DNA from: Mytilus edulis
Lineage: Eukaryota
DNA length: 64,000 nt
Direction of reading: 5' to 3'
Assembly (NCBI RefSeq): GCF_963676685.1
Contig: NC_092350.1
Coordinates: 12,896,001-12,960,000, forward strand
Shown: positions 26,445-53,709 of the stretch, piece after piece
Numbering within the stretch: position 1 is the first letter of the stretch
How the letters are laid out: the number at the start of each line of letters is the position of its first letter
Translations under genes and position numbers: made by a program
Notes under the pieces: generated by a model
What the model saw: the letters and a program-made list of their open reading frames with translations, nothing else
Told to the model about the DNA's origin: nothing
Database searches by the model: none

Positions 26445-26450
26445 TTCCGG
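26445..26450. other. Right target-site duplication TTCCGG
   Basis: Matches 2403..2408. Confidence 0.95.
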
Positions 26451-26533: not shown

Positions 26534-29500
26534 AATTTATAGTGTTGAAGAGACAACTGAAATCATTATTCGGATGATCTTCGAATATTACAAACATCTG
26601 TCTTGAATGCTCATCTAATTTTTCTGAAAAAAAATTCCCCAAATAACAACAATGTTAAATCTGCAAATTATAGGAAACATTTTTTTTATTTTCTCGCAAG
26701 GTATTCGAACTCGTGCTATCGGGACAATACCGCCTGCAATGTGTTCATTGCTCTAGACCCCTCGGCCACCTATACTGAACTAAATAATATAAGCTTTCTG
26801 TGGTTTAGGTAACCTGTCTTCGTCATTAGAATCTAGAGTTGGCCTTTTAAAGCCGACTATGCAGTATGGGTCTTTTAAAGCTGACTATGCAGTATTGGGT
26901 TTCTCATTATTGAAGGCCGTACGGTGACCTATAGTTGTTAATTTCTGTGTCATTTCTTCTCTTGTGAAGAGTTGTCTCATACAACATATTCTTTTTTTAT
27001 ATTTTGACACAGTACATGATATATTAGGCACGAAGAGGGAATTGATTGCAGATTAGCTAAATTATCTATCGTTAAGGATCGTAAGATGCAGTCACATAAA
27101 TACTTAAGTACGTCTTAACAAGTGACAACTCTACGACGGAGCCATCCATTGGATCACCAGTGAAGGTGTTAAGGATGTCTGTCTAAAGAAAGGAAATTAC
27201 CAAGAAAACAAAATTTTCAGTAAATGTCAATCATTTCGACCCCCATTTATATCTAATATAAGCACATAAGGTATATTTGTTATAATAACTTATTTGAATT
27301 AGGTAAGTGAAAAGTAGCTTGTATGCAAATTTTCGTAAAAAAATCACCATGGGATCAAAACTGTGTCGCATGCTTTGAGCTATATAGCTTTCAATATCTG
27401 CGAGTGCTCCTATATCTTTACGGTTGTTTTTTCGTCTTTCTGTTATTTGTGGTGTGTTTTGGTTCGATCTGATGTGTCAAGCCTTCTCAACTGATTTTTT
27501 ACAGTCTGTTCTTCATGGTGCTGTGTCAGGTTATGGAAGGGTTAAACGCCCACAGAATTGTTGTGTATATATTTCTCCTTATCGTATATTTGCCTGTTTC
27601 ACATTTTAAGCTTTTTATTTCGTGGTCGGCGATAGTTGATGTCGGTCTTTGATTTCCGCTAATATTAGTGTTTTATTTTTTCGTTATTTGTTTAATATTT
27701 TATCATATATGGGGCTTATATACTTGACTGTACGGTACAGATTTTTTTCATTGTTATATGTGTACATGAACGTGGACCTAAAATTGCAGAAACTCGCTTC
27801 ATATCAATCATACCACATCTCTTTATTTTATATAGTACAATATCAACAGTACCAATTTTACTTCATCAGATGCATATTTCTGCAATTTATATATTTCAGA
27901 ATGAAAATGAGGAATGTTTCAAAGAGACAACAACCAGATCATAGAACAGAAAACAGTACAAAGCCATTAATGGATCTTCAACACAGCGAGAAAATCCCGC
28001 ACCTAGAGAGCTCAAGAATAGACTGGAAACATCTACCAACAAATAAGATGTTCGCAGAACGATTAGTAAACATATTCTCGCTGTATTGAAGGCCCTCGGC
28101 CGTTTTCAGCTCTTTTGTCGGGTTGTTGTCTCTTTGACACATTCCACATTTCAATTCTCAATTTTATGACATAGACATATATTGACATGATTAATGAAGA
28201 ATAAAGCCAAATTAACGGAGGTGAAAATAACTCAATTATTTCTAAAAAAAAATACGTTTTATTTAAATAAATATTACCGTGACTGTTTGTTTTTATTTAG
28301 GTGATAACACATACCCTTCATTTTGTGAAGTATTTCAACGGAATTCCCTCCATCCGCCGTACAGTAATCAGCAATTACTATAACGTCATCTTCAAAATGA
28401 TTGCACAGAGTTTCTAAAATGAATATACGTCAAGAAAATTATTTTTCTGAACACAACTACACCTTATATAATAATGACGGAGTTTGATTGGTTGGTAGCC
28501 AATGTATATTTCGCATATTCTAACCTTTTTTCTCATTTTATGTTTTTCACCACTGCCGGTGAATATAACTTTCTTAATCTATCCTAGATTTCTACTAAAC
28601 TTAAACCGAAGCTTGCTTATGATCATTAGATAGTATCCATAAGTTAATTTTGTAATTCCTGTTTTCCGTATTTTACTTATAAAAGGACTTAGTTTTTTTT
28701 TCTGCCAGGAAACATTACATTCACTCTGTGGTTAAAGTTTTTAAAATTTTAATAACTTTCTTAAACTGTCCTTGACTTCTATTAAATTTGGACGTAAGCT
28801 TGTTTATGATCACACAATAGTATCCACAAGTAAATATTATTAAAAAAAAATCCTGTTTTTCCATATTTTACTTATAAATGACTAAGAAGAAAAAAAAACT
28901 TACTATAACCCCTTTTTAAGTTAAATGGTTGCTCCTAAAACTATTTTACCTGAATAATTATTTGAAAAAAAAGTTTATACACAAACTCTAAAATTCTGTA
29001 ATATTTTAGGCATAATCGTCATTTCTTCTAAAACTAACTATAATTATACAAAAAAAAGTGTTAATTTTAAATGTCCAAGTGCCCAGTTCCATTTGATAAC
29101 AATTGAAATAAGTTATGGAAAACACATTTGACTCAAAGAAGAACGAAATGTTAACCTCCAGATGATGGTCGGTATGTCAAAACGAGGTGACACTACCGAA
29201 AATTAATCCATGATACAACAACTTTGTGCATATCAATGCACAATATACATCGAAGGACAGTTCCAAAGAAAAGAACAAAAGAAAATAAGCCTAAACATTT
29301 TGAGACCTCTTAATATTTGATTTAAAACTTCTATACTCTATTTGATAAGATATTTTTTCTAAATAACTTGTTTGTGCATATGAAAAATAAAAACTTTAGA
29401 ATATACGGAAGATTTGTCAAACTTGTATACTAAATATAGTAAACAAAATCAACATACCTATGCACTTGAGAATGGGCTCCGCAGAGGATATGATTATTTG

Positions 29501-29554
29501 GTTGCAAACTCTCATCACATCTGAGTACCGACTTTGTTCATCTGAGTACATCAT
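26534..29554 (-). CDS. SABATH/Methyltransf_7-like SAM methyltransferase, 5' exons (29554-29458, 28413-28315, 26623-26534); 3' exons not found in the window
   Basis: Three phase-1-compatible GT-AG exons give MMYSDEQSRYSDVMRVCNQIIISSAEPILKCI/ETLCNHFEDDVIVIADYCTADGGNSVEILHKMK/EKLDEHSRQMFVIFEDHPNNDFSCLFNTIN. This matches the SABATH motifs IADLGCSSGPNT and NDLPxNDFNxLF in order and spacing. Confidence 0.85.
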
Positions 29555-30756
29555 ACTTTTTTTTCTCTTTCTGAATAATAATATAATTATTAAGTTAGCA
29601 ACAGACCTATATTCCACCCGCTGCTCACCTACGTGTAAAGATGATTCTTATATCATTGGAGGATACTATCTAACATAAATGAGTGTATATATCCCTGTGA
29701 ATGACAAATCTCTCATTGTCAAAATAACCGCACAGATAACCTACGAAAGCCGTACAGCTTAATATTCCCAAAGGGTCATTTATAAATACTGATAAGGGTA
29801 TTTTAAGGTTAGTAATGAGACGTTAGTGGGGACATGGTATTATAAAATTAAGAATAATGATTTAATTAATATCTAGATCTTTGACATTCCTTTTTTTGTT
29901 CTACATTGTCACATCTCAAAAGTTTGACCTTTTTTTTCTAAATCTTTTAGATCCGAATGATTTAACAAATCAAATAAGGTATATACGAATAATATTTCTT
30001 ATTTATAGACATATCTATTTTACTTTATCCTGCATAATAAAAAGTAATCCGGTTTAGACCTTTACTAGTATCTGATTCTTTTTGACGACTTTTTTTCTAA
30101 TTATCGAAAATAAATATCATATATATAGCGAGGGTAACAGCTGTATCAAGATAAAACTTATTATAATGACTTTTTGTATACGTTTTTTCTTCTTCCTTTT
30201 CAAATTCATTTTATACTGCAACAAGTTGTGTATATTTTCTAAATGTAATAACACAACTATAGTTTGTGTAATGTCACTACAATCTGAGGTTCATTAAGGG
30301 ATGATGATATTAAGTTAGAAATTAAAATTTAAATAGCTATTAATGAATTGCTTAAGTTGCAGTATAAAAACAATATTCAATTTTTGTCAATGTAAAAAAC
30401 TTTTTTTGTATTCGTCACAAAACTGGGGTAGGGCTCGGTAAAACCTCGCACTTCCCTAGTTTCTCAGACTCATACAAAAAAGTTGACGTACTTATGGACG
30501 TACTTCAGCGCTCAATAATGAATAATGAACTATGAATAATGGACGTACTTCAGCGCGGTAAAAAAAGTTCCTATTTTTCTGACAATGACCTTATATTGTA
30601 TATTCATTTGTAAATATGGATGACGTGATTTATGTTATATTATTTGTATAGCATTACATGATAGCCAAAAGTATTTAATAAAACTGTTTGATGCGCCTCT
30701 TGATCCATCCAAGTCTTCAGTTGGTTTATTTCGAAGTAGTCACAAAATATGTATTT

Positions 30757-30913
30757 AAGAATTGAATGCTCTTTTTTGTCAATTTATTGGGGTGTAAAAG
30801 CGTTGACCGAAGTAATTTTGTATGAAGCGCGGAAGCGCTTCATACTTAAAATGTGCGCACGGTCAACGCTTTTACAACCCTATAAAGTTACAAAAAAAAG
30901 CATTCAATACTTA
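30757..30913. repeat. Long imperfect palindrome (MITE-like)
   Basis: TAAGAATTGAATGC...GTAAAAGCGTTGACCG...ATGAAGCGC / GCGCTTCAT...CGGTCAACGCTTTTAC...GCATTCAATACTTA. Confidence 0.75.
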
Positions 30914-32300
30914 TAATTACATTTTTACCTATAGGATCATGAAAACACGCCTTTTATCATGTTTTATTTCATTTACCTGTGCACTTTATTGTGGGACCTC
31001 GTGTCATCATGAATGAGAAGTTTCATTGAGTGATACAACTGCTTAAGGAATAACACATGATGTGCAGTTAGCCAATCAGAATAACGTATTGTAATGAAAC
31101 ATACATCTAATGTAATTATTTTCGAATGGGCATAGCAAAGTGGTAATTCAATTACTCTAATTATTTGAAGCGTGTGTAATTCTTATGTTATGTTATTGCT
31201 ATATTGTTCGTAAGTTTTAAATATATTCTTTTCAAATACATTTTAAGATGGACTTGTGTATGTATTGTTACACATCTATTAAACACAGTACGCATTTCTG
31301 TGTGTAACTCCTTATTTCAAAAGTGCTGATGTCAGTATGCCCAGTTTCATAATATTTAACTATATATATCATGATTTTCAAATGCCGTTATTATTTTTTA
31401 TAGGCATGTACGACCAATACATATCTGTTTGTTTTTTTATAATATTTATAATAATCAAGCATATTAGTTAGCCTATACACATATTTCATTAATTACAATA
31501 ACAGGGCTTTAAACATAGGCGAGAATCTATATGCAGTTGCATACGTATTTACCCGATGTAAAACATGATATAAAGTTAATTGTGATATCGTTATAGGTGC
31601 AAAATAACCAAATATGAATTAAACAAAAGCAAACAGCAAAGCTTACGTGCAGTTCAGCAATCAACTTGAACCAGATAATTTTACAACGGTGAACAACAAC
31701 TCATTGAACGAATAACAATTCCAAGGTTACATAACACCGGTCTATTGATGGTGGACGTTTTTAACGACCCTGACTGGCTATACAGCTCTATTGTATGGGA
31801 TACTTCTATTTTTATAGTCTTGTATGTAATTGAAGCTTTTTTTTTTAAAGAAGGTTATTTAATATGTACATGACTTTTTTGTATACTATGCATGTAAAAC
31901 CTTTTCTGAAAGCAGAGCAGTGAAGCGAACTAGAGATTTGTATATTTAATTATACGGTTTTTACCACAAAGGACCTACTGACCTAATGACTTGTTTTTTG
32001 TCTAACCCAATTATTTTGAAAATACAAATACTTTACTTTGTTATTGTTAGTGTGTTGGTAAGCAACTCGCTAGACACAACTGGCTCTTGGACAGTGAAGT
32101 ATAATTGTAACAGGCACTCTAAAGAATAAAGAATATATTTTTTTGTTAAAAAAAAGATATGAAAATGTAAAAGTCAGGAGTGGATTCAGATTAAGCGTAT
32201 AGGGCATACTCCAGCTCCCCTTTTAACGGAAACATCTTCCTTCTTTCATAAAAAAAAATGTAGGAAAATTTTCTGCATCCCACCGATCGGCGGTATATAT

Positions 32301-35300
32301 GTAGGACTCTAAAGTGCGATGGTCACGCTAAAGTACGATGGTGTCTCACGCTAAAGTGCGATGGTCACGCTAAAGAACGATGGTGTCTCACGCTAAAGTG
32401 CGATGGTTGTTTGTTCGCTCAAGTGCGATGGACCAAAAGGGTAAGATTCGAGGGATTAAAACATCGAGGTTAAAAAAAAATAGTCTTTTTACGAAAGATA
32501 ATTGGTGTAGATTGCCATACACAGAGTCTATCACTAATGGGAACATTTTAATTAGATTGCATTGTAAATTACAAATACAAAATAAGATTATTGTCGGAAT
32601 ATGTAACATTTTTTTTTAAGATTAAATCTAAACAAGAGAAAGAGGCGATGTTCGCTGACTTTTCTTCTTTTTCATAGTGACCACACAACCATGTTATATT
32701 TTCCTTCAATATACAAACGAATGTTTTAGCCAGTGACATCCCATTAGTCCGACAACCATTATTCCGACAGCCCAATACTTCAAACAGCCCACTATTTCGA
32801 CAACTCATTACTCCGACAGCCCAATATTCCGACAACCCATTACTCCGACAGCCCATTATTCCGACAATGTATCTGTCTTGTGGGTGTGGGTAAATTTTCT
32901 CTAAAAAGACCAACTCTGTTCTCTTTAATATTTGGGGTTGTCCGTTTTGATTCCAATTATTCTTTTCATGCGGGATATTTGTTTCATTATATTGGAGTTG
33001 ATACACATGCGTATTGCAACTGCTCAGTCCTTACCTCTGTCCCTCTTTCGTTTTACGTGTCTGGGTAATTTATTTGTCTTTATATTTCCTCGTTTGTGTG
33101 TCCACTGTCAGTCTGTGCTGTTCTAGTTCGCTGTTGTTTTTATTTCTTGTGTCTTGATCTACCTTCTTTCGCTAGATCTTCGGTTTCCCCCTTTCACGTA
33201 TCAGGGGAGTGAGGTTTCACCACAATTAACTACATAAATAAATATATCGGAGTTGGATTACACTACCCGCCCTCTTTGGTCGGAACACTTTCTATCCCTT
33301 GTGTCATTCATCTGAGTTTTATTCAAATTGATTTTGTCGCAGAAATAAGGGACAAATGTGGCGTCAGTCAAAATGAGAAAACAGAGACAAATACATACCC
33401 AGATCCTAAAAATAAGATGACAAATAGGATGAAATATGTGTTCAGAAAATATGATCAATTCCAATTATGAATACGGTATCATGTTTGGGAATGTGAATCC
33501 ACGAAGTACGGAGACAGTACAAGTCACTTCCAATAACGTTAGATCGGCCATGAGAGATGACACTCAATATATTTGTAGGGATACCAATTTTATACTCCGA
33601 GCTTATTTAAAATCTAGAAAAATATGCCTCTTTTATAATGGTTGGGGTAGGTGCAGGATTGATGATTTACAACAAAACTTATTACGAAAAACAAATATGA
33701 CGGACATGAATATTTCGGTAACTTTTATCTAAATATTCATAAGGAAAAGTGATATCGGGTCAATGACTATATGACATAGAAATATGCAGTAAATGCAATT
33801 TGACTGCTGAAATAGAGCAAGTCCAGTATAAAAGCCAATAACAACTAGTAAACAATCTAAAACAATGTGTGAAATTCTTGTCCTGCTTGTATCTTTGTCA
33901 AATTATCTAATTGTAATAACTTAGTACATTATGTGTTTTGTTTCAAGAAGAAAAATATTTGATATCATTGATTTTAAGAAAGATAGTTCATATGTTAATT
34001 AATGCTCATGCACTCATTACATTAGGAATTGAAAATGCCAGATACTCAAATTGCAAAAAATCGTATTGTACAGCTGATAAAGTTGAGGATGAGCGTCATT
34101 TTCAATCGAATTAATTTGAGGGATGAACTCTTCCAGCATATTTCTAGCACTTGTCAGAACTTTAAAAAGTTAGATAAACATGATTAATCAAGAAAACTTT
34201 ACTATTATCGGAAAAAATGATGATTTAATTGTTAGTTCTTTTAAACTATGTAGTACAGGTCTTGATACTGACTGTTGTTTGATATCAATGTGTTGGGTGT
34301 TTTTTCCCCCCTATTTTGTTTTGGTTCCGATTGTGACTGTGGATTATGGTGAAATAAAATTAAAAGATACATTGTAACTATATCATATTAGTATTGTAAT
34401 GTCTTAATGTTATACCAATCATTTTATACCGCCGCTTCGAAAAAGTGGGGAGTATATTGTTTTGCCTCTGTCTATCCGTCCGTCCATCCGTCAGTCCGTC
34501 CGTCTGTCCCATGAATATTTTCGTTGCATCTTTTTTAATGAACAACATTACAAGAATTTCTGAAATGGTTTCAGGGTTAATTGAAGTCGGCTTTATCGTG
34601 TGATGCGTTTTCAGATTCATAACTCAACAACTATCTGTTTACCGAAAACTTTTCACATGAGAGCTAAGTTGAAAATTATCATCATATTTTTCTCAGAAAC
34701 TACAATACAATGATTTCTGAAATTTGGTTTCAAGGATTATATAAGTCAATTATACTGTGTGATACTTTTTCAGATTCACAACTGAACAACTTCCTGTTTA
34801 CCGAAATATTTGGGCGGGGGTATCATCAGTAGCTCGCACCATCACTGGTTGGTCTTGATTTATATGCTCTTTATAGACCTTGTATTTTGGAAAATAAATC
34901 TCTTTTCTGTTCTGTTCTATATACAGATTTCGAATTGAGTATAGGGAAAGTACTCGAACTAGCTTAGTCTTATGTAATATATACGGAGTTATTTCTTAAA
35001 ATATGTTATTACATAAACGTAATAATTCAGACAGACAAATGTTATGTTACTCAGATACCCTTATACTTGACTTGATAAGTGTCAGCATTATGGGTTGTCG
35101 GAGTATTGGGCTGTCGGAGCAATGGGTTGTCGGACTAGTGGGTTGTCGGACTGATGGGCTGTCGGATTAATGGTGTGTAACTTTTAGCCGACCAAATCAA
35201 ATTATAATTTACGCATGAAAACAAGTACTTTTTTTTACCGACGTTACTTTCCAATAAAATCGACAACGTTTTCAAGGGAACTGCAAAGTAAACTGCAACA

Positions 35301-35638
35301 TAAAAAATGATTCAAATATATCTTTTCGCTTCCACCAAAACCAGGATACATGATATCCATGCGAATACCGACAAAGCACGGTCAGGTTTAAATCACTTCA
35401 GTCATTGACATTTGGTTTTAAAGGTGTTAATAAAATATTTGTAATTTATCTTCCGGCGTGTTCAATTTATAGTTTGTATAAACGACTGTTAACGTCATAA
35501 TCCAACTACGTTTCGTACGTAGATACTGTCGCGGACCATCGCACTTTAGCGTATGGAGGCATCGGACTTTAGCGTAGACCATCGCATTTTAGCGTGACCA
35601 TTGTACTTCAGTGTCCCCATGGCACTTTAGAGTCCTAC
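32301..35638. mobile_element. Non-autonomous TIR DNA transposon with subterminal repeats, in an (AT)n site
   Basis: GTAGGACTCTAAAGTGC.../...GCACTTTAGAGTCCTAC; repeated CGCTAAAGTGCGATGGT near both ends; ATATAT on both flanks. Confidence 0.8.
32733..35181. mobile_element. Nested TIR element with ~19-bp subterminal repeats (CCGACA cores), 8-9-bp TSD
   Basis: Inverted CCGACA/TGTCGG arrays at 32740-32870 and 35090-35170; flanks TTTTAGCCA / TTTTAGCCG. Confidence 0.75.
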
Positions 35639-37734
35639 ATATATGTTTGTCGCAATTTACGAAATTTTTCTTATATCTAACTGACTGATAATTTCTTTTC
35701 CCAGCACAGCAGAGTGATATGAACAATTATCGCTAGAAACTAAGGGCGCACCAGCCCCTTGTCATTAATATTGAAATTAACAATGTCGTCATAGGTAAAA
35801 TAGCAACAAACGGATTATCATTGGTCATCTCAACTCGATTGTTTTTCTCACTTGCGCCGTACCGGCTCAATCATAAAAATCATTCTCGTTCAGTTGATCA
35901 ACGATAATCTATAAAAATGAAAAAGCGTTATAAATGGTATAAAAAATATTTTAGTCTCATGCAACCTTTGGGTTTATAGACATATCTGAAAACTGGCCGA
36001 AAGTAGAGCGGTTGCTAGCAAGTGGCTCGGGTTTTAATGCAAATGTGTGAACAATCAGCTTGGTTTTATCCCTGATATGTTTAGACTATGTAATAAGTTC
36101 AATATCTTGCAATATACTGTTAATCTTATCGAACTAGGATCTTTTCCTTCAAAAACTGTCTGGAACAATGTAGTGTTACAAAACTTTCACAAGACTGAAC
36201 AATTGAAGTGGCTAGAAAGAATTTCAAACGATAGAGACTTCAACTTTTTCAAACTTATCCATCCAGTCATTATTTACATAAAGCATTTATAATTGCGAAG
36301 AGATAACCAGATTTAAGAGTAGCTTCAGAGTACATTTTGACCTGTGTGCTATTTATTGTACGTATGAAAGTTGAACATCTCCTATGTGAAAAATGCGGGA
36401 ATTTTCAAACGTTTAAGATCATAAACTATGCTCATGTGACTTAAACGTTTGTCCTTGATTATAGAAATGAAATGTGAAGAGACATCATAAACCTGAAGTC
36501 AATCATATGAACAGTCTATCATCTCTAGAATTCACACTTCTATCATGTGACACGAACTAGATAACGACGAGAGTAGTGTACTTATAAAACTTTGTGTCCA
36601 GCATATATATAACACATGTAAACTTTGTTTTATGGATAAGTTTCTGGTCATTAGCGACAATCACAATTGCTAAATTTGATGATCCTTTTTGTTGATACTT
36701 TGAACTGTCTAAGTGCGTGTTGTTTATGTGTATTGTTTCTAACGTGTTTATATGTTACGATATATTCTCTGTATAGAAAGAAAAAAGCCAAAAATAATAA
36801 CAATAATCCCTTTCTTTATGATTAAGCACGAGCGGTAGCGAGTATTTTACTGAAAGTGATTATCACTCTTTTAAAACCGTGAAAGATGTAAAGTGCTAAA
36901 GGTTCAAATAATTTCTTAATTGCTTTAATCAAGAACCTGTTCATTGTCAGAATATGTAGATTCAGATTCAATATTTTATTATAGTCTCACTACTTGCAAT
37001 ACTATTAGTTACATAGAGTGCTAGTGACCTAATACGGTATATATGGGGTCAGTAAATTCATATGGAATTTAGAATTTAATGACCCCATACATGTATATAC
37101 CGTATTAAGTCACTAGTGCACTATGTAACGAATTTATCTTACCGACTATCTTAACATGTTGCATTAGTTTAGTGACCTCTCACAGTGAGGAAGTCTTCTA
37201 TATCGTAAGCATTAAGAAACTATACTTCCATTGATCATCCAAAAACGGATAACCACTTGTTATCTTTGAATGTGTTTTTAAATTTATTTCAATCATTCAT
37301 TGTCTGTTTAAACCTTTAAAAGATTTTTTCTCAGTATCGTTTTGCTTGTATAAAGGGACGTACAATGTAACACTACTAACTGTGTATATTGAAAAGCCCT
37401 TAAACGCGATCTTACTACGTTCCCAGCAAAAACGTCGACATCATGTTCAATATCAATACAGTTCCATTCCTTCTAATTCTGATTAATACATTGTACGTAG
37501 ATTTCAAGAAAAAATACAGTCATGCCACCGAAATAAACTAGAACTAGTGTGCGTGGTGGTAGGGGTTTGTGTAGAGGCAGAGGGAGCTCTGATACATGTA
37601 GTAACTAATCCTGATCAAGCAGTGATATCGGACAGACCAATCCAACCTAAATTGCAACCTATTATAACTGGTCCATGAGGCTCAAATGACGATATTTTAG
37701 TGAACGATGGCAGAAATGACACAGTAGTGTCAAT

Positions 37735-38520
37735 AGATATGGGAAGATGTGGTATGGGTGCCAATGAGACAACTCTCCATCCAAGTAACAATTAATTTAT
37801 AAAAGTAAACCTATGTAGGCCAAGGTACGGCCTTCAACACGGAGCCTTGGCTCACACCGAACAGCAAGCTATAAATGGTCCCAAAAATTACTAGTGTAAA
37901 ACCATTCAAACGAGAAAACCAACGCCGGTCTAATCTATACAAAAACAAAGCATGGTTGAGCCGTTAGAGAAAATGGACAAGAAGTCTAATTACATACTGA
38001 CAAACAAAACCTGGAGAGATTTAATATATTTTATGTGAAAATGACAATGAGAATGATGGTCGTAGTATGAACGTAGTTAGGTGGTAAGAAGAGCGTGATG
38101 AGGACGACAAGGGCGTGCTAGAATCGTACTATGGTCTTGAATAGCGTGGTGTAAACGTGGTACCCAATATAGGCCAAGGTACGGCCTTCAACACGGAGCC
38201 TTGGCTCACACCGAACAGCAAGCTATAAATGATCCCAAAAATTACTAGTGTAAAACCATTCAAACAGGAAAACCAACGCCGGTCTAATCTATACAAAAAC
38301 GAGAAGCATGGTTGAGCCGTAAGAGAAAATGGACAAGAAGTCTAATTACATACTGACAAACAAAACCTGGAGAGATTTAATATATTTTATGTGAAAATGA
38401 CAATGAGAATGATGGTCGTAGTAAGAACATAGTCTGGTCGTAAGAAGAGAGTGACGAGGACGGCAAGGGCGTGCTAGAATCGTACTATGGTCTTGAATAG
38501 CGTGGTGTAAACGTGGTATA
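37735..38520 (+). repeat. Host interspersed repeat plus local ~355-bp tandem duplication
   Basis: GCCAATGAGACAACTCTCC family (related copies at ~48300, 53320, 61950); ~37815-38163 is repeated at ~38170-38520. Confidence 0.8.
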
Positions 38521-39997: not shown

Positions 39998-42900
39998 ATG
40001 GACAACTTAAAGACAGAATTACTAACCGGACTTTCGGCAAATCCAATGTTTATTCCAGCATGGTACCGTTATGACGAAGAAGGATCTCGGTTAAATGATA
40101 TTTGTATGGAGCAGTGCAAATATTACTACTTTCATCGTTTTGAAAGGAACATCCTGATTGACATTATAACAGTACGTACTCATAAATTAAGGTGGCTCGG
40201 GCGTATTCGAAGTTTCTATCAGAAGTGCCGTATTTTTGGTTATTTTATTCTTTAAAGAAAATGAATCAAATTGGTCGAAAAAAAATAGGGTGTCACGGAC
40301 CATTTAAGCTCAAAATTTTACTTTTAAACACTGTCAGGTATGTAAAAGGGACCATTTTTCAATGAAATGATAGGGGAAATAGAGGTGTTGACATATTTTT
40401 TTCGGAATATCAAAAAAACGTTCTATGACAATTGTTCCAAATCTGTAATATGAAAAGCTGGAATACAGCTTCAAAGAATGAGCCAATAAAATACATAGGT
40501 CACCGATAAGGAAAAAAAAATATTTTGCCTTGCAACCCAAATTTTGGCGGGAAAATGGTAAAAATGGGTGAAATGTCATTTTGACCCTTTAAAAAATACC
40601 GATAATAACGAAAATATTCTATTAGTCACATAACTACAATGATTTAATATTTCTAATCAATCAAAATATTAAAAAAAATTACGACAATTACTTTTGTAAT
40701 TCATGCGTGAAATTATGCGCAGTCGAATAGTCCCGAGCCACCTTTAGCTAATATGTCGCTTAAATGTGCAAAAGGGATGAGACACAAGTTAATCAAACTT
40801 ATATAGTCTTCTCCCATAAAAATTTATAACAGTAGAATATTTACAAAGCATGTATACAAACAATACATTATATATATATATATATAAAAAATATTTGAAC
40901 TGTGAAGAGATGGTGTGTGATGATGTGACTGGTTATACACAATATGCATGTATTTGCACTTTATAATGTGCTATATTACACAATTACAAACCTCTTAGAC
41001 TCTTTAATAAATTCATATACATTCTTTACAATTCTTTCATTTTCAACATTAGTTAAAGACGTATCGCCAGAGGTTAAGATGTTCAAATTTAGTAGAGAGT
41101 TAAATAGAGAGTATTAAATAATTGGGTTCTTATATTCGAAAAATTAGGACAATAAAAAAAGAAGTGACGTGAATCTTCGCACTTAGCACCACAGCTACAA
41201 GACGGATCTGAAATAATGTTGACTCTGTTAAGATCATAATTCAAAAAAGAAGCTGAGCACCTAAGTTGTGTCAAAATAATATTGAGTTTACGATTGCCAA
41301 AGTCATAATGTTTTGGTACTTGGGCTTTTGAATTTATTTTAAGATTTTTTAGTTCGGTTTAAATTTACCTAAAGAGTAAATGTTGCGTGTCCGCACCACA
41401 TTAAGGTTATTCCACAGTCGTATTGTTGAAGGTATGAAGGATTCTTGGGTTAATGAAAGTCTACAAAAAGGGTATATGATATCATTCCCATTACGTAATG
41501 GATAAACAGTTTTAATTTGGATTGTTAGTGGAATTGAATTGCAAAGATCGGCTGGTGCATTATTATGTTGAATATTATAGAATAATTGTACCTTCCTTCT
41601 TTCTCGTCGTTCAGCTAGAGTTTCCCAACCAATCACATCATAGATAATTCTATTAATTGTAAAAATAGGAAGACCTGTTACAATTATGGCTGCCTCAAGC
41701 TGCAGCTGTTCTAATTTTTTACAATAACTCACACCCATATTAACCCAAAGTTCACATGCATATTCGAGTAGCGGTCTAATAAAAGTCAAGTAAAGCTTTC
41801 CTAAGTTGCTCCTACTTATCCTGTACTTTAATGTTCTAAGTACATTCAAATGTTTAAATACATTTTTTATGATAATTCAACATGGGTGATCCATTTAACA
41901 TCTTGACTAAATGTAACACCCAAGACGTGTTTATGGAAGTCTGTAACTTCAATCCTCTAACCATTGAAAGTGAAATTCATTTCTGGAGTTTCAATGTATG
42001 AAAACAACATTATTTCTGTTTTTCTGGGTTAAAGGACATCAGCCATTTCTTAGACCAATCGCTCAGCTCACTCATGTCGTTTAGATAGAAAAGAATAATA
42101 TATGCAATAAATACACATGGAAAAAAGTATTGCAACACCAAATTGAAATTCAAATTAAAAAAACACTCTTTATTTTTTTGTGATATAATTTGTTGAAATA
42201 GAACTATTTAAACATTCTTTAAATATTACTTGAGTTTAATTAATAAATATCGACTCGATAAGTTCTTATCTGCACATGCAGCTACTGTATTCGTAAACAA
42301 TAAAACAGATTTTTTTTATCTTCACTGTTTTCAACACTTTAAATAACCAAGTTTATAAAGTTATGTGATTGACACCTTGTAATTGGTCATCCAGACTACA
42401 ACTCATAACTGCAGCAAGATGGTAGATAATCAGCATTAGAGAAGCATGTATGTCGATGTGACAATTGCACGTATTGTTGGTTATCACCATTCTACTATAA
42501 GTCGTTTTGAGAATAAAAATCAGGCAACAAACGATGTTAAAGACCGTCCGAGATCAAGAAGATCCCCTATAACATATGCTAGGGAAAATCAAGCATAATG
42601 AAGGTTGGTCAGAAGGAACCCCATTGCAAACAATACAATCCTAAAAAGAGGGTGATGACCATACAGGAGCCTTTAAACAAGAACTGTTAAATCGGCTCAT
42701 CGCTACTGGTTATCGAGCGATGAGACCATTTCAGTGACCTTTGCCTACGAACAGACACAGTTGCCCGTATCCAATGTAGTGCAGAGCTCGCCAAAGTTGG
42801 AAATTAGCATCGTGGAAGAAGATCCATTGTTCCAATGGAATTCGGTTCATCTTTCTTTTTTTTTTTCTTTTTTTTTCCTTTTTAGTTGAAGTGTCCTAGA

Positions 42901-45900
42901 AATATCTTTAAAGTGTTTTACTTTGGAGAAATTAAAGTTTGAAGCATTTGGACTGTATTATATTCTTGTAGATTGTAGGATCTTACGTATTCGTCAAATT
43001 CAGATTTTAAAAAGAATTCGGTTTATCTTCCTTGGCCCGATCGTAGCCCGGATTCGAACCATACCGAGCATATATGGGACACTATTGGGCGTAAAGTGCA
43101 CGAAAGGACACCCCAGTTCAAACACGTCATGATATAAACAATACCCTTCGTAAGGAATGGTTGCTGCTACCTTAGCAACAAACTGGTCGACTTATGGTAG
43201 GAATCAGAAGACGTTAAGATGCGGTTATCTGTTTGAATGGAGGCTGCACACAAGTACTAATTCTTTGGCGTATAACGATCAACCATCATGTGAACAATCA
43301 TCTAAAGATTAATTTTGAAATGTCTGACATTGTAAAGTTCGACTACAGTAACAGTTGTAAAATGCATTTTTTTGTACAAAATACACTTCATTTTGTTATA
43401 AAAATTTTGGTTAAATAAAACAATTTTTTTCATACATTTTTTGTTCGTTTTAATGCCAATATTATTTTTCAAATATTTTATCATATTCCATCCAAAATAA
43501 GAGGCTGATTTTTCAAGTTTTAAAAAATCAAGGTGTTGCAATACTTTTTTCCATGTGTATATTAATAACATCGAAATAAAACGACTACGTACTGCAGTGT
43601 ATTGTAGATGATCATAAATTATCATTTATTGAGCATTACTATGATAGTGTTTGCATATGTGTAACATGTGTAACAAGCGATAGTAGACTTGTCATAAACT
43701 CAACGGACAATAACCCGTATCAGCTCTGTGTAACGTCACGTGATAGGGCTGATATGGGATTATCAGCCTGGTTGCGTTCGCACCTAGGCAGTATATGATA
43801 TGAAGTATAATACCTGTCTTTTTGTCTTTTTCCTTATCGACCCGGCAAAAATCTCTTGACCAATACTATAAATCGACTAACGACTCGGTATGATACCCCG
43901 GCCGATATGACTCTCGAGCTGATATGCAATCCTTATTGAAAACAATTTAGTTATTAAATTTATCCTATTCAGTAAAAATAGTTTGTTTTTTTTTTATAAA
44001 AAAGAAAGATGTAGTATAACTCTGACGAGACAATCATCTCTTGACAGAGAAGAAGTTAAAGACGAAAGGACAAATATGTGAACAAAATGTGGCATTGCAC
44101 GGCCTTCAACAGTTAGCAAAAACAAAATCATATAGAAAATTTAGAACTAACCAAATTAAGATCCAAAACCTGATTCAATTTAAAAAAAACAATAAACGAA
44201 CGAAAAACAAATTAAATGTAGACAGCAACCAAAGCGTCAGAGTTTAACAGGGTTCTCTAACCATCGCGGATAATGAGGTTACAGGCCAACATAAATGTAA
44301 AATGGACTTGATTCGGTCAATTCTAGGAACAGTTACAAAAGTTTGTTTTAATTTAATTTTGTAGATTGCCATCCTTTTCGTAACGTTCAGTCTTCGCAAG
44401 CAAAGCTTGGGGCTGAATAACATTTGCATCAATCGGATTCTGTTTTAGATTAAAAAAAAAAATACTTTTCTTTTATTGACAATGAAACTTGGCATGCAAG
44501 TCAGTATAAAACAATTGCGTCATTTCAAATTGAAAAAAACCTTTTCTAATTGGTAGATGCTAAAATTGTGTAAGGACTAAAGAGCCAGAGAAAAGAAAAC
44601 ATTACCAATTCTGAGGCTTTTTTTTTGTTTTGTTTGATGTAGTTGTATTTTAAAGGAATTAACAGAATATTTGAAAGATTCCAGAATGGTTGTTGACCTT
44701 GGTAGTGGAAATGCCACCAAGACAATGTTGATCTTAGATAAACTTTTAGAGACGCACGAATCTCTAACTTATGTCCCAGTAGATATTTCTAAAGGTTGGT
44801 ATGAACGCATTGTTTTCCCCTTACTAACCAAATGTGTTTTTCGAACGTGTCTATCTCCTTTTGTTGTTGAAATATTTGAACAGAAAGTCGATTATTTGTA
44901 AGCTGAAACATTTCTTGATCAATAACATATGCATACTGCATTTTAGGCTAGATAACACCATGGCTACAAAAGAAAAATACAAACAGACAAATAATAGTAC
45001 ACAAAACACAACATAGAAAAATAAAGACTAAGCAACATGAACCCCTCAGGTGCTCCGGAAGGGTATGGAGATCCAAAGATTCAAAGTATGACAATTAAAG
45101 ATTAAAATCATTTTGCATGTGGTTTAGTCTACAGCTCAAAAGAAAACTTGTATGATTTATAATTATATAATATACTGTAATTAAACAATATAACATAAAA
45201 CACAATGTTACCATATTTCTTCCAACGATACGTATTAGCAACAGAAATAGCTGCAGAAATAAGTTACTGTATAAAAAACGACTATTAGGATTTTCTGTGT
45301 CACTGCACACTGTACTAATTTTTCTAATGTTTTTGTATGCAATGTAGTGTTTGCCTAGCTAAGATTTTTTTTAAACATTGAACATTATTATTCACTATTT
45401 CATAGATTTTCTTAGCAAAACCGCTGCAAACGTGAAAACAATATATGGAAATAAATTAGATGTTCATCCAATCGGAGAGGAATACATGGTAGCACTGAGA
45501 AAAGTAAAGTTAGTATATTTATAATGTCTATGAATAGATGTTAATTGACTTAAAATGTTGCATCCTTGTTTGATTAATTGTTTCTCTGGAAAATCTACGA
45601 AAACGAAAACGACGCATAGTTTTTTTTTAATCGAATAACGTTTGAAATTGTCCTTTTCCATTAAAAGATTTTTTTTTATTAGATAGATTTTAGATAATTT
45701 ATTGTTTCTTATACAGAGACAATGCAGGCAATATAAATCACGAATGAATATGCAGTCAAGCTGTCGTGTGGTTTGACCAAATCATTTGTATCCAATAATG
45801 ATAAGGTATTCATAATCGCTTGTTTTGGTTTGAAAATTATAAAAGAAAAAAGAAATACATCGATTAAATAAATATTTCTTCTTTTTGTTTTATGAAAAAT

Positions 45901-48900
45901 CTAATTTGTCTTAAAACAATTCTAAAGTTTATAGCCATTTTTTTAGATTGACTTCTGATTTATGTTATACAGAAAAAAACATCTTGCGAGTCTTCAATAC
46001 ATTAGCTTATACAAGCTTTCAAATGCATTAAGTAATTAGTACATTTTGCCCCTTTATTTTTTTATTCACAGAACTATGACAGATAAAAAAATTATTGTAT
46101 GGTTTGGAAGTTTGCAGAGTTTATCGTATGAAAAGCAGTTAGATGTTCTATTGGAAATACGAAACACTATGCAAGGTACTTGAGGCGAAGAAGAAATGTA
46201 TTGCTGAACTTGACCATTCGTCAGTCTTTCCTTTTTTCTGTCAATCTTAACTTCCATTCGGCTGTCCGTCCAGCATATGACATCAAATCTTTGAATCAAG
46301 GAGCATTTAGGGTAAACTGTAGTTCAATGAGACCCCAAAATAGCGACAAAATTAATCAAAAGACATGCATATTGCAACATGCAACAATCAACAATAGACA
46401 ATGTATCGTACATTATGTCAAGTGCATCACCATTAGGAATACAAAAAATAAAAATAAATTCATAACTATGAACACCAATTCTCTACTTATTAAAAATTAC
46501 GATATAACATGATAAAACAATCGGACTTAGTGGCAGGCGCATGCGTGTTGATACATCTCAATACCTACCTTTACTATATCGACCAATGGACTGACACAAT
46601 GTCTGTCAAAGATTCTCATACTGAAATGTACAGAGCCATGTTGTTCTCATACATGTACAGATTCGTGGTTTATTAAGTCAAGCGCTGGATATGTAAAGTC
46701 TAGCGCTGTAGATTTAAAAGCAAGCGCTGAATGTGTAAAGCCAAGCTTTAAAGTATATATCCGGTTCTGTACTTTTATTACATATACACGTTGATATAGA
46801 TTTGAATTTTTATTTTCTAACACAGGGCTGAAACCTGCTAAACATTTGATCGTCAGAAGGTTTTAATACACTTATTTAATATGTTGCCAGGCTTTGTTCT
46901 TTCATCAAGTCATGCTGGGGATCAAACTTGTGAATTACAATACGCATATTTAAATATCACACTAAACACATAATAATTTAAGATAACAACACCAAAGATG
47001 CATGAAATTTTATTGTACAGAAAGTCAGATAGTACGTCGATGTCGTTTCTTCTCGCTCTACACAACACAACAATAACCCCCGTATATGTTTTTATTGGTT
47101 CTACATGTAAATAAAAACAATATTTGTTTCACTTAAGGTTTCTTTATTATGGCTGTACTATTTGTTTTATTTATGAAGAAATAATTTAATTTTGGATGTA
47201 CGCGTCTTCTGATTGGCTGACGTTGTTATGTTTATCAGCTCATAGACATAATTTTGTCATGTGACTTTGACGTCATCAATGGTTTTTCATGAATTCCTCC
47301 GGTTTAAAATGAAATTTAGATTTAAATTATAAGATCTGACTGTAATTCTTTTTTTTCTGTCTATTTGAAATAACATAAAAAATGTGGTGCACACTTTAAA
47401 ATAACCCACTACGAGGGTTATTCATTGTGCATCGCATTTTTTATGTTATTTCTTCATAGACAGAAAAAAGTAATATTAAATATGTGGTGCACACTAAATA
47501 ACCCGAGTAGCGGGGTAATTAAAAGTATGCATCACATTTTAAGGTTATTTCGAATAGACAAAAACACATTACAGTCATTTGTCATAATTTATTTCTATAT
47601 TCCAGTTGTAAGGAGTAAATTTTGAAAAAGACGATGGTTACGTCACGGTCAAATGACAAAATTATGTCTATGATCTGATAGACAAAACACATTTAGCCAA
47701 TCAGAAGACGTGTTACATCCAAAGTTAAATTATTTACCTATAATTCACATATTTCTTTTTTTATTCAATTGCAGTACTTATGGTGTCTTAAATGATTTTA
47801 ATTAATACTTGGTATCTTGTTGCAGTGGATGACAAATTGGTGATTACATTTGATGTGACAGATGCATCTCGTAAAGATATTATAGAGCTATCTTACCTAG
47901 ATCCTGAAGGTAAATATTAGTCCTCATGCGTTTGATACTACAACCATCTCATAAAACGTAATATACAATTATGATAAGTAGTTACTACTGTAATCACTAG
48001 CCAATCAACACTGAGGTTGCGAGTTCGAACCCCGCTCGAGCGGGTGCACTCCACTCCAATCTTTATTGACTAGGATTGTCAGTTTTCCTATCGAAGGTCG
48101 GTGGTTTTCTCCGGGCACTCCGGCTTCCTCCACCAATAAAAACAAGCAGCCACGAAATAGCCTAAATGCGGTGGTTAAAGGGGCGTTAAAATACCAACAA
48201 TAATAAATCAGTAATGATTAATACAAAACAAAGTCAAAATCTCTAATTTTTATTTTCTACAAAACATTTTGAATGTCATATTTATATCGATAGATATAGG
48301 AAGATGTGGTATGAGTGCCAATGAGACAACTCTCTATCCAAATAACAGTTTATAAAAAGTAAACCATCATAGGTCAATGTATGGCCTTCAACACGGAGCC
48401 TTGGCTCACACCGAACAACAAGCTATAAAGGGCCCCAAAATTACTAGTGTAAAACCATTCAAACGGGAAAACCAACGGTCTAATCTATATAAAAAAAAGC
48501 GAGAAAGGTACAGTTTGTTGTTCATATATTTTAAACTTTGTAAAAAAATATACTAGCATTTTCATATCATACTGGTTCGTTAAATATCTTCATGTTTTAC
48601 TGACATCACTCCCTAGACTAGTTTATAATGACACCATACTCGAATTATAGAATATACGATTGTCTATGACATCATGTAAAGACATACTGGAATATACGAT
48701 TGTCTATGACATCATGTAAGGACATACTGGAATATACGATTGTCTATGACATCATGTAAGGACATACTGGAATATACGATTGTCTATGACATCATGTAAG
48801 GACATACTGGAATATACGATTGTCTATGACATCATGTAAGGACATACTGGAATATACGATTGTCTATGACATCATGTAAGGACATACTGGAATATACGAT

Positions 48901-51900
48901 TGTCTATGACATCATGTAAGGACATACTGGAATATACGATCGTCTATGACATCATGTAAAGACATACTGGAATAAACGATCGTCTATGACATCATGTAAG
49001 GACATACTGTATATACGATTGTCTATGACATCATGTAAGGACATACTGTATATACGATTGTCTATGACATCATGTAAGGACATACTGGAATATACGATTG
49101 TCTATGACATCATGTAAGGACATACTGGAATATACGATTGTTTATGACATCATGTAAGGACATACTGTATATACGATTGTCTATGACATCATGTAAGGAC
49201 ATACTGGAATGTACGATTGTCTATGACATCATGTAAGGACATACTGTATATACGATTGTCTTTGCCATCATGTAAGGACATACTGTATATACGATTGTCT
49301 ACGACATCATGTAAGAACATACTGGAATATACGATTGTCTATGGCATCATGTAAGGACATACTGGAACATACGATTGTCTATGACATCATGTAAGGACAT
49401 ACTGGAACATACGATTGTCTATGACATCATGTAAGGACATACTGTAATATACCATTGTCTATGACATCATGTAAGGACAAACTGGAATATACGATTGTCT
49501 ATGACATCATGTAAGGACATACTGAAATATACGATTGTCTATGACATCATGTAAGGACATACTGTAATATACGATTGTCTTTGACATCATGTAAGGACAT
49601 ACTGGAATATACGATTGTCTATGACATCATGTAAGGACATACTGGAATATACGATTGTCTTTGACATCATGTAAGGACATACTGGATTATACGATTGTCT
49701 ATGACATCATGTAAGGACATACTGGAATATACGATTGTCTATGACATCATGTAAGGACATACTGGAATATACGATTGTCTATGACATCATGTAAGGACAT
49801 ACTGGAATATACGATTGTCCTTGACATCATGTAAGGACATACTGAAATATACGATTGTCTATGACATCATGTAAGGACATACTGTAATATACGATTGTCT
49901 TTGACATCATGTAAGGACATACTGGAATATACGATTGTCTATGACATCATGTAAGGACATACTGGAATATACGATTGTCTTTGACATCATGTAAGGACAT
50001 ACTGGATTATACGATTGTCTATGACATCATGTAAGGACATACTGGACTATACGATTGTCTATTACATCATGTAAGGACATACTGTAATATACGATTGTCT
50101 TTGACATCATGTAAGGACATTCTGGAATATACGATTGTCTATGACATCATGTAAGGACATACTGGAATATACGATTGTCTTTGACATCATGTAAGGACAT
50201 ACTGGAATATACGATTGTCTATGACATCATGTAAGGACATACTGTAATATACGATTGTCTTTGACATCATGTAAGGACATACTGGAATATATGATTGTCT
50301 ATGACATCATGTAAGGACATACTGGAATATACGATTGTCTTTGACATCATGTAAGGACATACTGGATTATACGATTGTCTATGACATCATGTAAGGACAT
50401 ACTGGAATATACGATTGTCTATTATATCATGTAAGGACATACTGGAATATACGATTGTCTTTGACATCATGTAAGGACATTCTGGAATATACGATTGTCT
50501 ATGACATCATGTAAGGACATACTGGAATATACGATTGTCTTTGACATCATGTAAGGACATACTGGATTATACGATTGTCTATGACATCAGGTTAGGACAT
50601 ACTGGAATATACGATTGTCTATGACATCATGTAAGGACATACTGGAATATACGATTGTCTATGACATCATGTAAGGACATACTGGAATATACGATTGTCT
50701 TTGACATCATGTAAGGACATACTGGAATATACGATTGTCTATTACATCATGAATGGACATACTGTAATATACGATTGTCTTTGACATCATGTAAGGACAT
50801 ACTGGATTATACGATTGTCTATGACATCATGTAAGGACATACTGGAATATTCGATTGTCTATTACATCATGTAAGGACATACTGTAATATACGATTGTCT
50901 TTGACATCATGTAAGGACATAATGGAATATACGATTGTCTATGACATCATGTAAGGACATAATGGAATATACGATTGTCTTTGAAATCATGTAAGGACAT
51001 ACTGGATTATACGATTGTCTATGACATCATGTAAGGACATACTGGAATATACGATTGTCTATGACATCATGTAAGGACATACTGGAATATACGATTGTCT
51101 ATGCCATCATGTAAGGACATACTGGAATATACGATTGTCTATGACATCATGTAAGGACATACTGGAATATACGATTGTCTTTGACATCATGTAAGGACAT
51201 ACTGGATTATACGATTGTCTATGAAATCATGTAAGGACATACTGGAATATACGATTGTCTATTACATCATGTAAGGACATACTGTAATATACGATTGTCT
51301 TTGACATCATGTAAGGACATACTGGAATATACGATTGTCTATGACATCATGTAAGGACATACTGGAATATACGATTGTCTTTGACATCATGTAAGGACAT
51401 ACTGGATTATACGATTGTCTATGACATCATGTAAGGACATACTGGAATATACGATTGTCTATGACATCATGTAAGGACATACTGAAATATACGATTGTCT
51501 ATGACATCATGTAAGGACATACTGGAATATACGATTGTCTTTGACATCATGTAAGGACATATTGGAATATACGATTGTCTATTACATCATGTAAGGACAT
51601 ACTGTAATATACGATTGTCTTTGACATCATGTAAGGACATACTGGAATATACGATTGTCTATGACATCATGTAAGGACATACTGGAATATACGATTGTCT
51701 ATGACATCATGTAAGGACATACTGGAATATACGATTGTCTTTGACATCATGTAAGGACATACTGGAATATACGATTGTCTATGACATCATGTAAGGACAT
51801 ACTGGAATATACGATTGTCTATGCCATCATGTAAGGACATACTGGAATATACGATTGTCTTTGACATCATGTAAGAACATACTGAAATATACGATTGTCT

Positions 51901-53709
51901 ATGACATCATGTAAGGACATACTGGAATGTACGATTGTCTATGACATCATGTAAGGACATACAGGAATATACGATTGTCTATGACATCATGTAAGGACAT
52001 ACTGGAATATACGATTGTCTATGACATTATGTAAGGACATACTGTATATACATTATTGTTTTATTTGAGACGTACTTTAATATTTGTCTTTTATGTATCA
52101 TCGATCAATTGATACAATTTTTTTCTGCAGGTTACAGCGAGAAGTTTTATCTCAATTCCATCCATCGCTTAAATAGGGAAATGAATGGTAATATTGACGT
52201 ATCAAAGTTCGAAATTAAGAACGAATTGGTGGCAAATTCAAAGTCAGATAATTGTAGCTATGTTAATGTTTGGATAGAGGCTATCGAGAATTGTGAAGTT
52301 AACATAGGTTTGTATTAAATAAATACGACTCAATCGGGTGTGCAAGGCTGTACAAGTTTTTTTTAATCAATCGTTTTCAGTATGGCATAACATAGTTTTC
52401 GACATGCTGTTGTCCTTGTTTGAAAGCTTGGACATGTGTCTAGAGTGAACTGTAAATAAAAGAATATTACCGTTATTGATAAGTGTGTTTTGAATGATTG
52501 CAATGGAAGGATATGTGGTATGCTTGCCAATGAGACAATATCTCCCGTCCAAAAAAAGATCACCCAGACATGATGGAATATAAAACAAGAACCCCATACA
52601 AACCTGTTTTAATCTTATATACTGTGTTCTGGAAAGACCACGCTTTTGAAGGGAATACGTTTTTATTTTACGAATCGGTGCAACAACGGAGAGATGTTTT
52701 TCCTTGATTTAAAGATTTTAAGTTGAATTGTACAGTAACGTGTTAATCAAAGTTGCTACTAGAAACTGTATTAGGCAAACAATGTCAATGGCTACACTGT
52801 TTTCTTTTTATATCGCAAATTAGGCCAAACAATATAAGAATTGAAAGATAGTTAAAACAGTTTGACATCGTTCGTTATTGCATCAAGAATTAAACAGTCC
52901 AGAGTTTGAATAACAATTGTTTAACAAGCCAACAAGAAATGTATGCCAAATCATTAACATCTTATAATTGAGCTCATTTTGTTTTTTAACGCGAAGTTTT
53001 GCAGGTCCGGTTTTTATGACATAGATAGGTCTATAATATTGAGGCAATTTTGTTTTCTGTGCGAAATTTTCTAATGTTTTATAAAATAAGAAGATATTAT
53101 GAAATAGTTCTAGTTCATTGAACTAAAAAACATGAAATCATAATAATTATTTATCTAATAACAGCCGTATACTATATAATGTTTGTATATTTGTAACAAT
53201 TATTTAAAATACATTTTGAAAGAGAAGATTAATTGTACTATGATAGCAGTTTGAGGAACAAGGACAACTTAAATTTCCCTCACTCATTTGAATATTTATG
53301 TTGAGATAAAAAAAAAATGTGGCATGATTGCCAATGCAATGAGACAACTCTCCACAAGAGACAAAAATGACACAGAAATTAACAACTATAGGTCACCGTG
53401 CGGCCTTAAACAATATGCTAAGCCCAAACCGCATAGTCAGCTATGAAAGGCCCCGAAATAACAATGTAAAACAATTCAAACAAAAAAACTAACGGCCTTA
53501 TTGAGTTCATTTTATTATATATTATAGGAAAATTAGATTTAACCAGGAAAATTCTAAAAGGAGAAAGATTATACCTGAACGAAGAGGGAGGGATCAGCTC
53601 CAAACATACTATTGCACAATTCGAATATCTCTTGAATAAAGCGTCACTGGGAATGGAGAAATACTGGACGAATGAACATGTGGGAGTGGTATTAGTGAAC
53701 CGGCAATAA
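39998..53709 (+). CDS. EgtD-like (Methyltransf_33) SAM-dependent amino-acid N-methyltransferase, 320 aa, 7 exons (39998-40171, 44656-44794, 45406-45508, 46072-46175, 47826-47909, 52131-52307, 53528-53709)
   Basis: All GT-AG, phases compatible, 963 nt open. GLSANPMFIPAWYRYDEEGSRL, VVDLGSGNATKTMLILD, YVPVDIS, SYLDPEG...FYLNSIHRLNRE and GERLYLNE...ISSK parallel EgtD. Confidence 0.92.
40191..40742. mobile_element. MITE-like element (Kolobok-like ends) in intron 1
   Basis: TTAA|GGTGGCTCGGG...CCCGAGCCACC|TTTA. Confidence 0.6.
40980..42075 (-). mobile_element. Degenerate non-LTR retrotransposon (CR1/L2-group) ORF2 3' fragment
   Basis: LYLTFIRPLLEYACELW, GWETLAERRERRK, CSCGAKCEDSRHFFFYCP; frameshifted. 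Confidence 0.85.
42114..43557 (+). mobile_element. Decayed Tc1/mariner element
   Basis: 26-bp perfect TIR CACATGGAAAAAAGTATTGCAACACC with TA flanks; remnants DVKDRPRS (~42535) and WPDRSPDSNHTEHIWD (~43035). Confidence 0.88.
47181..47735. mobile_element. Palindromic MITE-like element
   Basis: ATAATTTAATTTTGGATGTA...TCTTCTGATTGGCT is inverted at AGCCAATCAGAAGA...TACATCCAAAGTTAAATTAT. Confidence 0.75.
48000..48210 (+). mobile_element. tRNA-derived SINE (V/Meta-like core), 5'-truncated
   Basis: B-box GAGTTCGAACC followed by GGTTTTCTCCGGGCACTCCGGCTTCCTCCACC. Confidence 0.7.
48650..52050. repeat. 40-bp satellite, ~85 copies (GGAATATACGATTGTCTATGACATCATGTAAGGACATACT), in intron 5 of the EgtD-like gene
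   Basis: Seen directly; head-to-tail with point variants. Confidence 0.98.

Follow-up and report, generated by a model that had tools for sequence, protein, structure and literature searches.

In a stretch of 64,000 nucleotides of the Mytilus edulis genome (C7:12896001-12960000, contig NC_092350.1; hereafter the window), two methyltransferase genes lie head-to-head, an EgtD-like gene on the plus strand and a SABATH-like gene on the minus strand. On balance, the evidence favours two intact and unrelated S-adenosylmethionine (SAM)-dependent methyltransferase genes, each likely with its own promoter and its own small-molecule substrate, that were probably made adjacent by a rearrangement in the mussel lineage. 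Local duplication is the likely route by which they became neighbours and their adjacency is probably incidental; after such a rearrangement the linkage would persist by ordinary gene-order conservation. An earlier note, written from the letters of the window, had proposed sequential methylation of one metabolite under shared regulation. No positive support for this was obtained: the EgtD-like gene was duplicated without its SABATH-like neighbour, the 5′ ends seen in contigs of the two genes lie 8.1 kb apart and no core enzyme was found nearby in a coarse Pfam screen.

Duplication history and linkage of the two genes

Support for independent neighbours comes from a twin block in inverted orientation at a distance of about 200-280 kb (C7:13.14-13.22 Mb), in which the EgtD-like gene was duplicated together with the ankyrin-repeat/SOCS-box (ankyrin/SOCS) gene downstream of it and not with the SABATH-like gene. 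The inverted homology extends from window position 39954 to C7:13.035 Mb, taking in the ankyrin gene, and is matched by C7:13.223-13.140 Mb; where detectable it begins 44 bases before the EgtD-like ATG, with no SABATH exon inside. The twin block consists of EgtD-like genes (two copies, one of them broken) and ankyrin/SOCS genes only, and no SABATH exon was found in it. The genome has at least six EgtD-like copies at five places, and none of the five other copies was paired with a SABATH exon when their flanks were searched by tblastn and profile (C7:13.06-13.40 Mb for two copies, 110 kb at C7:24.65 Mb, 90 kb at C3:89.98 Mb and 60 kb at C2:3.34 Mb). Of the features by which animal gene clusters are recognized, adjacent non-homologous enzyme genes are present here, and genes moving or duplicating together were not seen for this pair.

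In a quick phylogenetic tree supported by the Shimodaira–Hasegawa-like approximate likelihood ratio test (SH-aLRT) only, the window EgtD-like gene and its twin fell into a long-branched clade of Mytilus sequences only (eight of the 49 rows; SH-aLRT 100). The tree comprised 27 animal-type and 22 other rows from 150 matches, without the C7:24.65 Mb paralogue and non-Mytilus mytilids. Scallops have EgtD-like expansions of their own, and the family therefore duplicates readily.

Near-consecutive SABATH/EgtD-like accessions on one contig were present in M. trossulus (XP_063401137-143), M. galloprovincialis (XP_076114139-141), M. californianus (XP_052064154/155 and 158) and a second M. edulis assembly (CAG2195802/803). 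Accession order is a proxy for linkage and is blind to orientation and to strict adjacency; in two species the next accession number belongs to the twin copy, some 270 kb off, so what the proxy shows is a shared neighbourhood. Conserved linkage, which the earlier note had made a test of its proposal, appears to hold within Mytilus by this proxy, and no non-Mytilus species had both genes among the named matches. Neighbours conserved within one genus are the default expectation.

The broken EgtD-like copy (C7:13198771-13208241) has an insertion that splits exon 2 and a stop in exon 6, and its exons 5 and 7 were not found. In the EgtD-like paralogue at C7:24643251-24643791, exon 6 has short internal repeats of one coding segment. 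The ankyrin/SOCS genes at C7:12.936-13.039 Mb and 13.135-13.223 Mb are long multi-exon inverted twins, about 75% alike, and between them lie TSP1-, Ig- and tyrosine-phosphatase exons.

Gene structure and transcripts

The divergent start codons put forward in the earlier note (29554 on the minus strand for the SABATH-like gene and 39998 on the plus strand for the EgtD-like gene) and both family assignments were borne out by the exon models and Pfam, and the translations of the two genes equal named M. edulis RefSeq products (P0005, SABATH-like; P0019, EgtD-like). The EgtD-like gene (39998-53709) encodes 320 amino acids with no internal stop. The SABATH-like gene extends past 26534: exon 3 has an open phase-1 donor, and exons 4-8 sit farther left, 1.3-5.4 kb beyond the left edge of the window (within C7:12890607-12894694). 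The eight-exon model gives a protein of 343 amino acids that matches P0005 letter for letter. Intron 3 spans 27.8 kb because a Polinton was inserted into it.

Transcript evidence consisted of contigs from eight runs, presumed to be RNA, one per study, out of 18 such runs; the runs were chosen for the SABATH-like gene, and contigs give no expression level, strand or transcription start. The joint between SABATH-like exons 1 and 2 (28413/29458) was present in six of the eight runs and that between exons 2 and 3 (26623/28315) in four of four. A contig from run X1 has 978 letters 3′ of exon 1, a length that fits spliced exons 2-8, which it would cover. EgtD-like spliced contigs comprised exons 1-4 in run X7 and the joints of exons 3-4-5 in run X8, and an RNA-like contig extends the gene 5′ to 39918. 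Both genes were spliced in X7 and X8, in contigs without levels from runs picked for the SABATH-like gene. At 97% likeness, EgtD-like exons 1 and 4 were without contig cover in X11, X12 and X16, an observation given no weight here.

The SABATH-like gene is not a pseudogene, a possibility that the earlier note had raised, because its frame is complete, its orthologues are conserved and its splice joints occur in the runs. The frame is preserved in five species, with 89-98% identity where full length (98% in M. galloprovincialis, 94% in M. trossulus and 89% in M. californianus). No second SABATH-like gene was found in the genome, in searches in which the PF03492 profile missed even the window gene and the P0027 query was also blank; because a known gene was missed, ‘single copy’ here means that no other was found. 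A candidate second locus at C5:68.73 Mb (E 3.8) was rejected, there being no further SABATH exons in that place.

Two unnamed proteins, P0006 and P0025, are each encoded on a 1,065-base contig. P0006 consists of SABATH exons 2-4 followed by off-frame exon 3 of an EgtD-like twin copy, and P0025 continues that copy. If both share one contig, this would be a chimera of SABATH and EgtD-like sequence, made either in transcription or in assembly; it would not follow from the gene order in the genome.

The interval between the genes had been described as holding only repeats, which is contradicted by a spliced 5′ untranslated region (UTR) exon of the SABATH-like gene (exon A, Table 1) and by the fact that just 23% of 29571-39997 matched other DNA (800 kb of the genome plus the rest of the window), the repeat share being at least that. 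The exon A joint (29570/31647, CT..AC) was present in runs X1 and X7 (two of eight). An alternative first exon of 57 letters (exon B), which matches the genome once, was joined at 29570/47897 (CT..AC, GT donor) at a depth of 5.4 in one of the four runs whose stretch reached it; the isoform, known from one contig, would run antisense through most of the EgtD-like gene. The contig ends at 31779 (SABATH-like) and 39918 (EgtD-like) are 8.1 kb apart, contigs being unable to show starts. In bidirectional promoter pairs the starts lie within about 1 kb of each other.

Table 1. Features of the window and of the adjoining part of the SABATH-like gene (window positions unless prefixed C7)
Feature	Position	Strand	Remarks
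SABATH-like (PF03492) coding exons 1-3	29458-29554, 28315-28413, 26534-26623	-	Exon model equals P0005
SABATH-like coding exons 4-8	C7:12894571-12894694, 12893621-12893748, 12892914-12893035, 12891725-12891884, 12890607-12890818		Left of the window
SABATH-like 5′ UTR exon A	31647-31779	-	Splices to 29570; no in-frame codons added; GT donor
SABATH-like alternative first exon B	47897-47953	-	Antisense in EgtD-like exon 5/intron 5; single contig
Gap between the 5′-most RNA-supported ends	31780-39917		8.1 kb; interspersed and tandem repeats mixed with unmatched sequence
EgtD-like (PF10017) gene	39998-40171, 44656-44794, 45406-45508, 46072-46175, 47826-47909, 52131-52307, 53528-53709	+	Seven GT-AG exons
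Polinton (Maverick) in SABATH-like intron 3	2409-26444		Starts 89 bp into the intron
40-bp tandem array (satellite)	48650-52051		85 copies, 94% matches; EgtD-like intron 5
Ankyrin-repeat/SOCS-box gene, first coding exon	60388-61434	+	Gene continues to about C7:13.039 Mb

The EgtD-like protein

The EgtD-like protein matched PF10017 over residues 5-311 with 178.5 bits against a cut-off of 23. Its predicted model (predicted local distance difference test score, pLDDT, 97.4) aligned with EgtD (4uy6) at Z 39.8 and a root-mean-square deviation of 1.5 Å over 305 residues, the next non-EgtD structure following at Z 20.5. SAM motif I (D72-L-G-S-G76) and the acidic D101 after strand 2 are present, and identity with mycobacterial EgtD is 24%.

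The substrate pocket was mapped from M. tuberculosis EgtD onto the 96%-identical orthologue P0002, and the alignment columns were verified in 71 rows. In EgtD the substrate carboxylate is contacted by Y56, Y206 and S284 (PMC8593015), which correspond in the sequence alignment to Y43, Y197 and S284, and equivalents of Y39, G161 (G151) and K286 are kept. The alpha-amine contacts are altered: N166, which has a role at the alpha-amine (PMC8593015) and has been reported as critical for sequential methylation (PMC9103826), is replaced by S155, and T163 is deleted. Serine at the Asn166 position is typical of the clade of this protein. Further pocket changes are F47 to N33, M252 to V247, T213 to S204 and N217 to Y208, and the equivalent of E282 is, depending on the alignment, E279 before an insertion of 3-4 residues or G282 without insertion. 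M252 of EgtD has a role in histidine choice, which fits the title of PDB entry 4PIP, an engineered EgtD (M252V,E282A) solved with tryptophan. As top Foldseek match, 4PIP was considered as an indication of a tryptophan substrate and rejected; it is tied with wild-type EgtD and is therefore no proof of such a substrate.

Judged from these residues, histidine trimethylation by the EgtD-like enzyme appears doubtful because three replacements (M252 to V, N166 to S and F47 to N) have reshaped the pocket, and the annotation ‘histidine N-alpha-methyltransferase-like’ conveys family, not substrate. The protein is likely an alpha-amino acid N-methyltransferase for a larger aromatic substrate and not a processive trimethylase. 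It would bind an alpha-amino acid by its carboxylate, through the three contacts retained from EgtD, and N-methylate it; the wider, less polar side-chain pocket would favour Trp or Tyr over His, and the missing Asn166 equivalent would favour mono- or dimethylation over a betaine. In the accepted view animals do not synthesize ergothioneine (PMC7653990). Annotations of EgtD-like proteins in animals name them histidine methyltransferases, although the mussel protein has lost key residues of the histidine pocket.

With mycobacterial EgtD, the hercynine synthase (also 4PIP), the mussel protein shares the two-domain fold, the SAM motifs and equivalents of Y39, Y56, Y206, S284, G161 and K286. It differs in the seven exons of its gene, the lack of an egtB-type neighbour and the 3-4 residue insertion beside E282, and, unlike the mycobacterial enzyme, it falls in an animal clade from bivalves, hemichordates and lancelets.

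The SABATH-like protein

The SABATH-like protein matched PF03492 with 101.1 bits against a cut-off of 29.8, and its atlas matches (0.98) were all to PF03492. The best PDB match was 5F2K, a mycobacterial fatty acid O-methyltransferase (E 7.5e-25), and the nearest match outside Mytilus was from abalone (32%). The protein resembles 5F2K in motif order and in H-W-L-S, of which H132-W133 are retained, and keeps D82-H-P-N-N-D-F (the D-x-P-x-N-D-F motif). Motif I keeps its acidic residue and lacks the canonical D-x-G (D48-Y-C50), the cysteine occurring in all five Mytilus rows, as against glycine in the abalone and metagenome rows and in the four PDB alignments shown. This replacement also distinguishes the mussel protein from other SABATH members, which include salicylic acid carboxyl methyltransferase and the N-methyltransferases of the caffeine pathway; compared with these known relatives it is encoded by an animal gene of eight coding exons, and its N-terminal Gln is not confidently placed. 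In SABATH enzymes this Gln binds the substrate carboxylate. Here the position falls on C17 or Q19 according to alignment register, where the predicted structure has a pLDDT of about 26; the model as a whole (pLDDT 50.7, from seven sequences) was too poor for structure search.

The enzyme would methylate a small carboxylic acid or a ring nitrogen in a single step. No other SABATH-like gene was detected in the genome, which makes this one a direct candidate for the formation of homarine, trigonelline or methyl esters. Homarine and trigonelline each need one methylation, not two enzymes. The earlier note pointed to methylated compounds accumulated by marine molluscs; homarine, betaine and putative trigonelline have been reported from mussel haemolymph (PMC8447493). 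None of these requires an N- and an O-methyltransferase acting in turn.

Comparison with known clusters and genomic neighbourhood

The pair belongs to the same genus as the bur-ox cluster of Mytilus and, like it, joins unrelated microbe-like enzymes (PMC11869996). The cluster bur-ox has a scaffold-forming non-ribosomal peptide synthetase (NRPS), recurrence across bivalves and gastropods, a product and assays, whereas the mussel pair is known from its genes alone. Likewise, the vertebrate gadusol pair EEVS/MT-Ox consists of two adjoining enzyme genes, one with a methyltransferase part, but its linkage extends through fish, amphibians, reptiles and birds, and it has a cyclase and a known product (PMC4426668), whereas the mussel linkage is in one genus. 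A further animal cluster, oro, has been described in a paper whose supplements list clusters from seven mollusc genomes (PMC12833800). For each of the three, deep conservation or a match with the producer species, a product and assays are given (PMC11869996, PMC4426668, PMC12833800). Literature searches, several of them loosely aimed and none covering subscription journals, found nothing about this locus or about SABATH or EgtD-like enzymes of animals. Both proteins are new members of two known families.

No scaffold-forming or further biosynthetic enzyme was found near the pair in a coarse Pfam screen of about 770 kb (C7:12.63-13.40 Mb) covering 240 proteins, of which 232 were frames from the region; such a screen misses short exons. 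Besides transposons and a TatD-domain frame, it matched ankyrin/SOCS, TSP1, Ig, tyrosine phosphatase and ABC transporter sequences. The SABATH-like gene and the intact EgtD-like twin were each represented by a single exon, the broken copy by none. NRPS-like frames map to C3, another chromosome than that of the pair, FGE-sulfatase-domain loci to C1 and C13, and the nearest formyltransferase match on C7 lies at 17.1 Mb. The bur-ox NRPS is probably present in two copies at C3:30.24-30.28 Mb, where two open reading frames (about 1,620-1,640 amino acids) contain a formyltransferase domain. An ABC transporter gene (ABCC-like by sequence) occupies C7:13.259-13.287 Mb; it precedes the twin EgtD-like copy by about 36 kb on the same strand.

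Hand arithmetic on assumed gene counts predicted 0.25-1 adjoining pairs per genome for any two unrelated small-molecule methyltransferases (assuming 100-200 genes), so that a genome scan can meet such a pair by chance. The same arithmetic makes this exact pair improbable (about 3e-4, from 2 x 6 copies over an assumed 40,000 genes).

Alternative interpretations

Several points weigh against independent neighbours. Besides the low chance figure for the exact pair, the only SABATH-like gene detected in the genome adjoins an EgtD-like gene, the accession order suggests that the linkage has been kept across Mytilus, and one contig has the two transcription units overlapping. If the SABATH-linked member of the twin blocks is the original, the pairing may be old. 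Genes can be missed by the neighbourhood screen, since the broken EgtD-like copy was, the substrates of both enzymes are predictions, and Mytilus has a proven enzyme cluster in bur-ox (PMC11869996).

In a true two-enzyme module, an aromatic amino acid would be N-methylated by the EgtD-like enzyme and esterified at its carboxylate by the SABATH-like one. The product would be the methyl ester of an N-methylated amino acid, with linkage held by selection. The amine and carboxylate chemistries would suit one substrate, M. californianus has both frames at 88.6% and 89.9% identity, so that they are conserved, the linkage appears to hold within the genus, the serine at the Asn166 position is typical of its clade, and bur-ox and EEVS/MT-Ox provide precedents (PMC11869996, PMC4426668). 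Such a module is nevertheless improbable given that SABATH was not carried in the EgtD duplication, that none of the five other copies is paired, and that neither a core enzyme (coarse screen) nor a short shared promoter was seen. None of the literature searched contained an N-methylated amino acid methyl ester from mussels, and we know of none. There is similarly little likelihood of a core-less module born within Mytilus, in which a re-tuned EgtD-type enzyme would N-methylate Trp or Tyr, the SABATH-like enzyme would cap the carboxylate to yield an undescribed metabolite, and the antisense first exon would tie the promoters together. Were a module true, it would be a newly arisen animal cluster of tailoring enzymes only, and a food species would be expected to contain a methylated metabolite not yet described; otherwise, two testable enzymes remain.

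Regulation could be coupled where chemistry is not, the SABATH isoform starting inside the EgtD-like gene and running antisense over exons 1-5 and the promoter, with interference or alternating expression as the outcome. The canonical splice ends and unique genomic match of the 29570/47897 joint argue for this, but the joint comes from one contig of low depth in one of the four runs able to show it, the nearer exon A was used in two of eight, and contigs carry no level, strand or start; we consider it unlikely. Least probable, and by our estimate very much so, is a SABATH-like protein that is expressed with weak or altered activity. It would be consistent with C50 in place of the motif-I glycine in all five Mytilus rows and with the diverged first substrate-binding helix; the frame kept in five species and the retained acidic residue, D-x-P-x-N-D-F and H132-W133 speak against it. 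Independent neighbours remain the favoured interpretation.

Repeats and other sequence features

The Polinton in SABATH-like intron 3 has terminal inverted repeats, a 6-bp target-site duplication (2403-2408 and 26445-26450) and frames for an integrase, a protease and an A32-like ATPase. About seven near-identical 7-kb units (C7:12.838-12.887 Mb) form an array that begins just downstream of the SABATH-like gene; their 170-amino-acid frame had no Pfam match. A 6-kb direct duplicate (5909-11908 and 12009-18010, 99.9% identical) flanks a gap of 100 N and is likely an assembly artefact. A telomere-like 6-bp array (26007-26052) lies just inside the right end of the Polinton, whose host gene is expressed.

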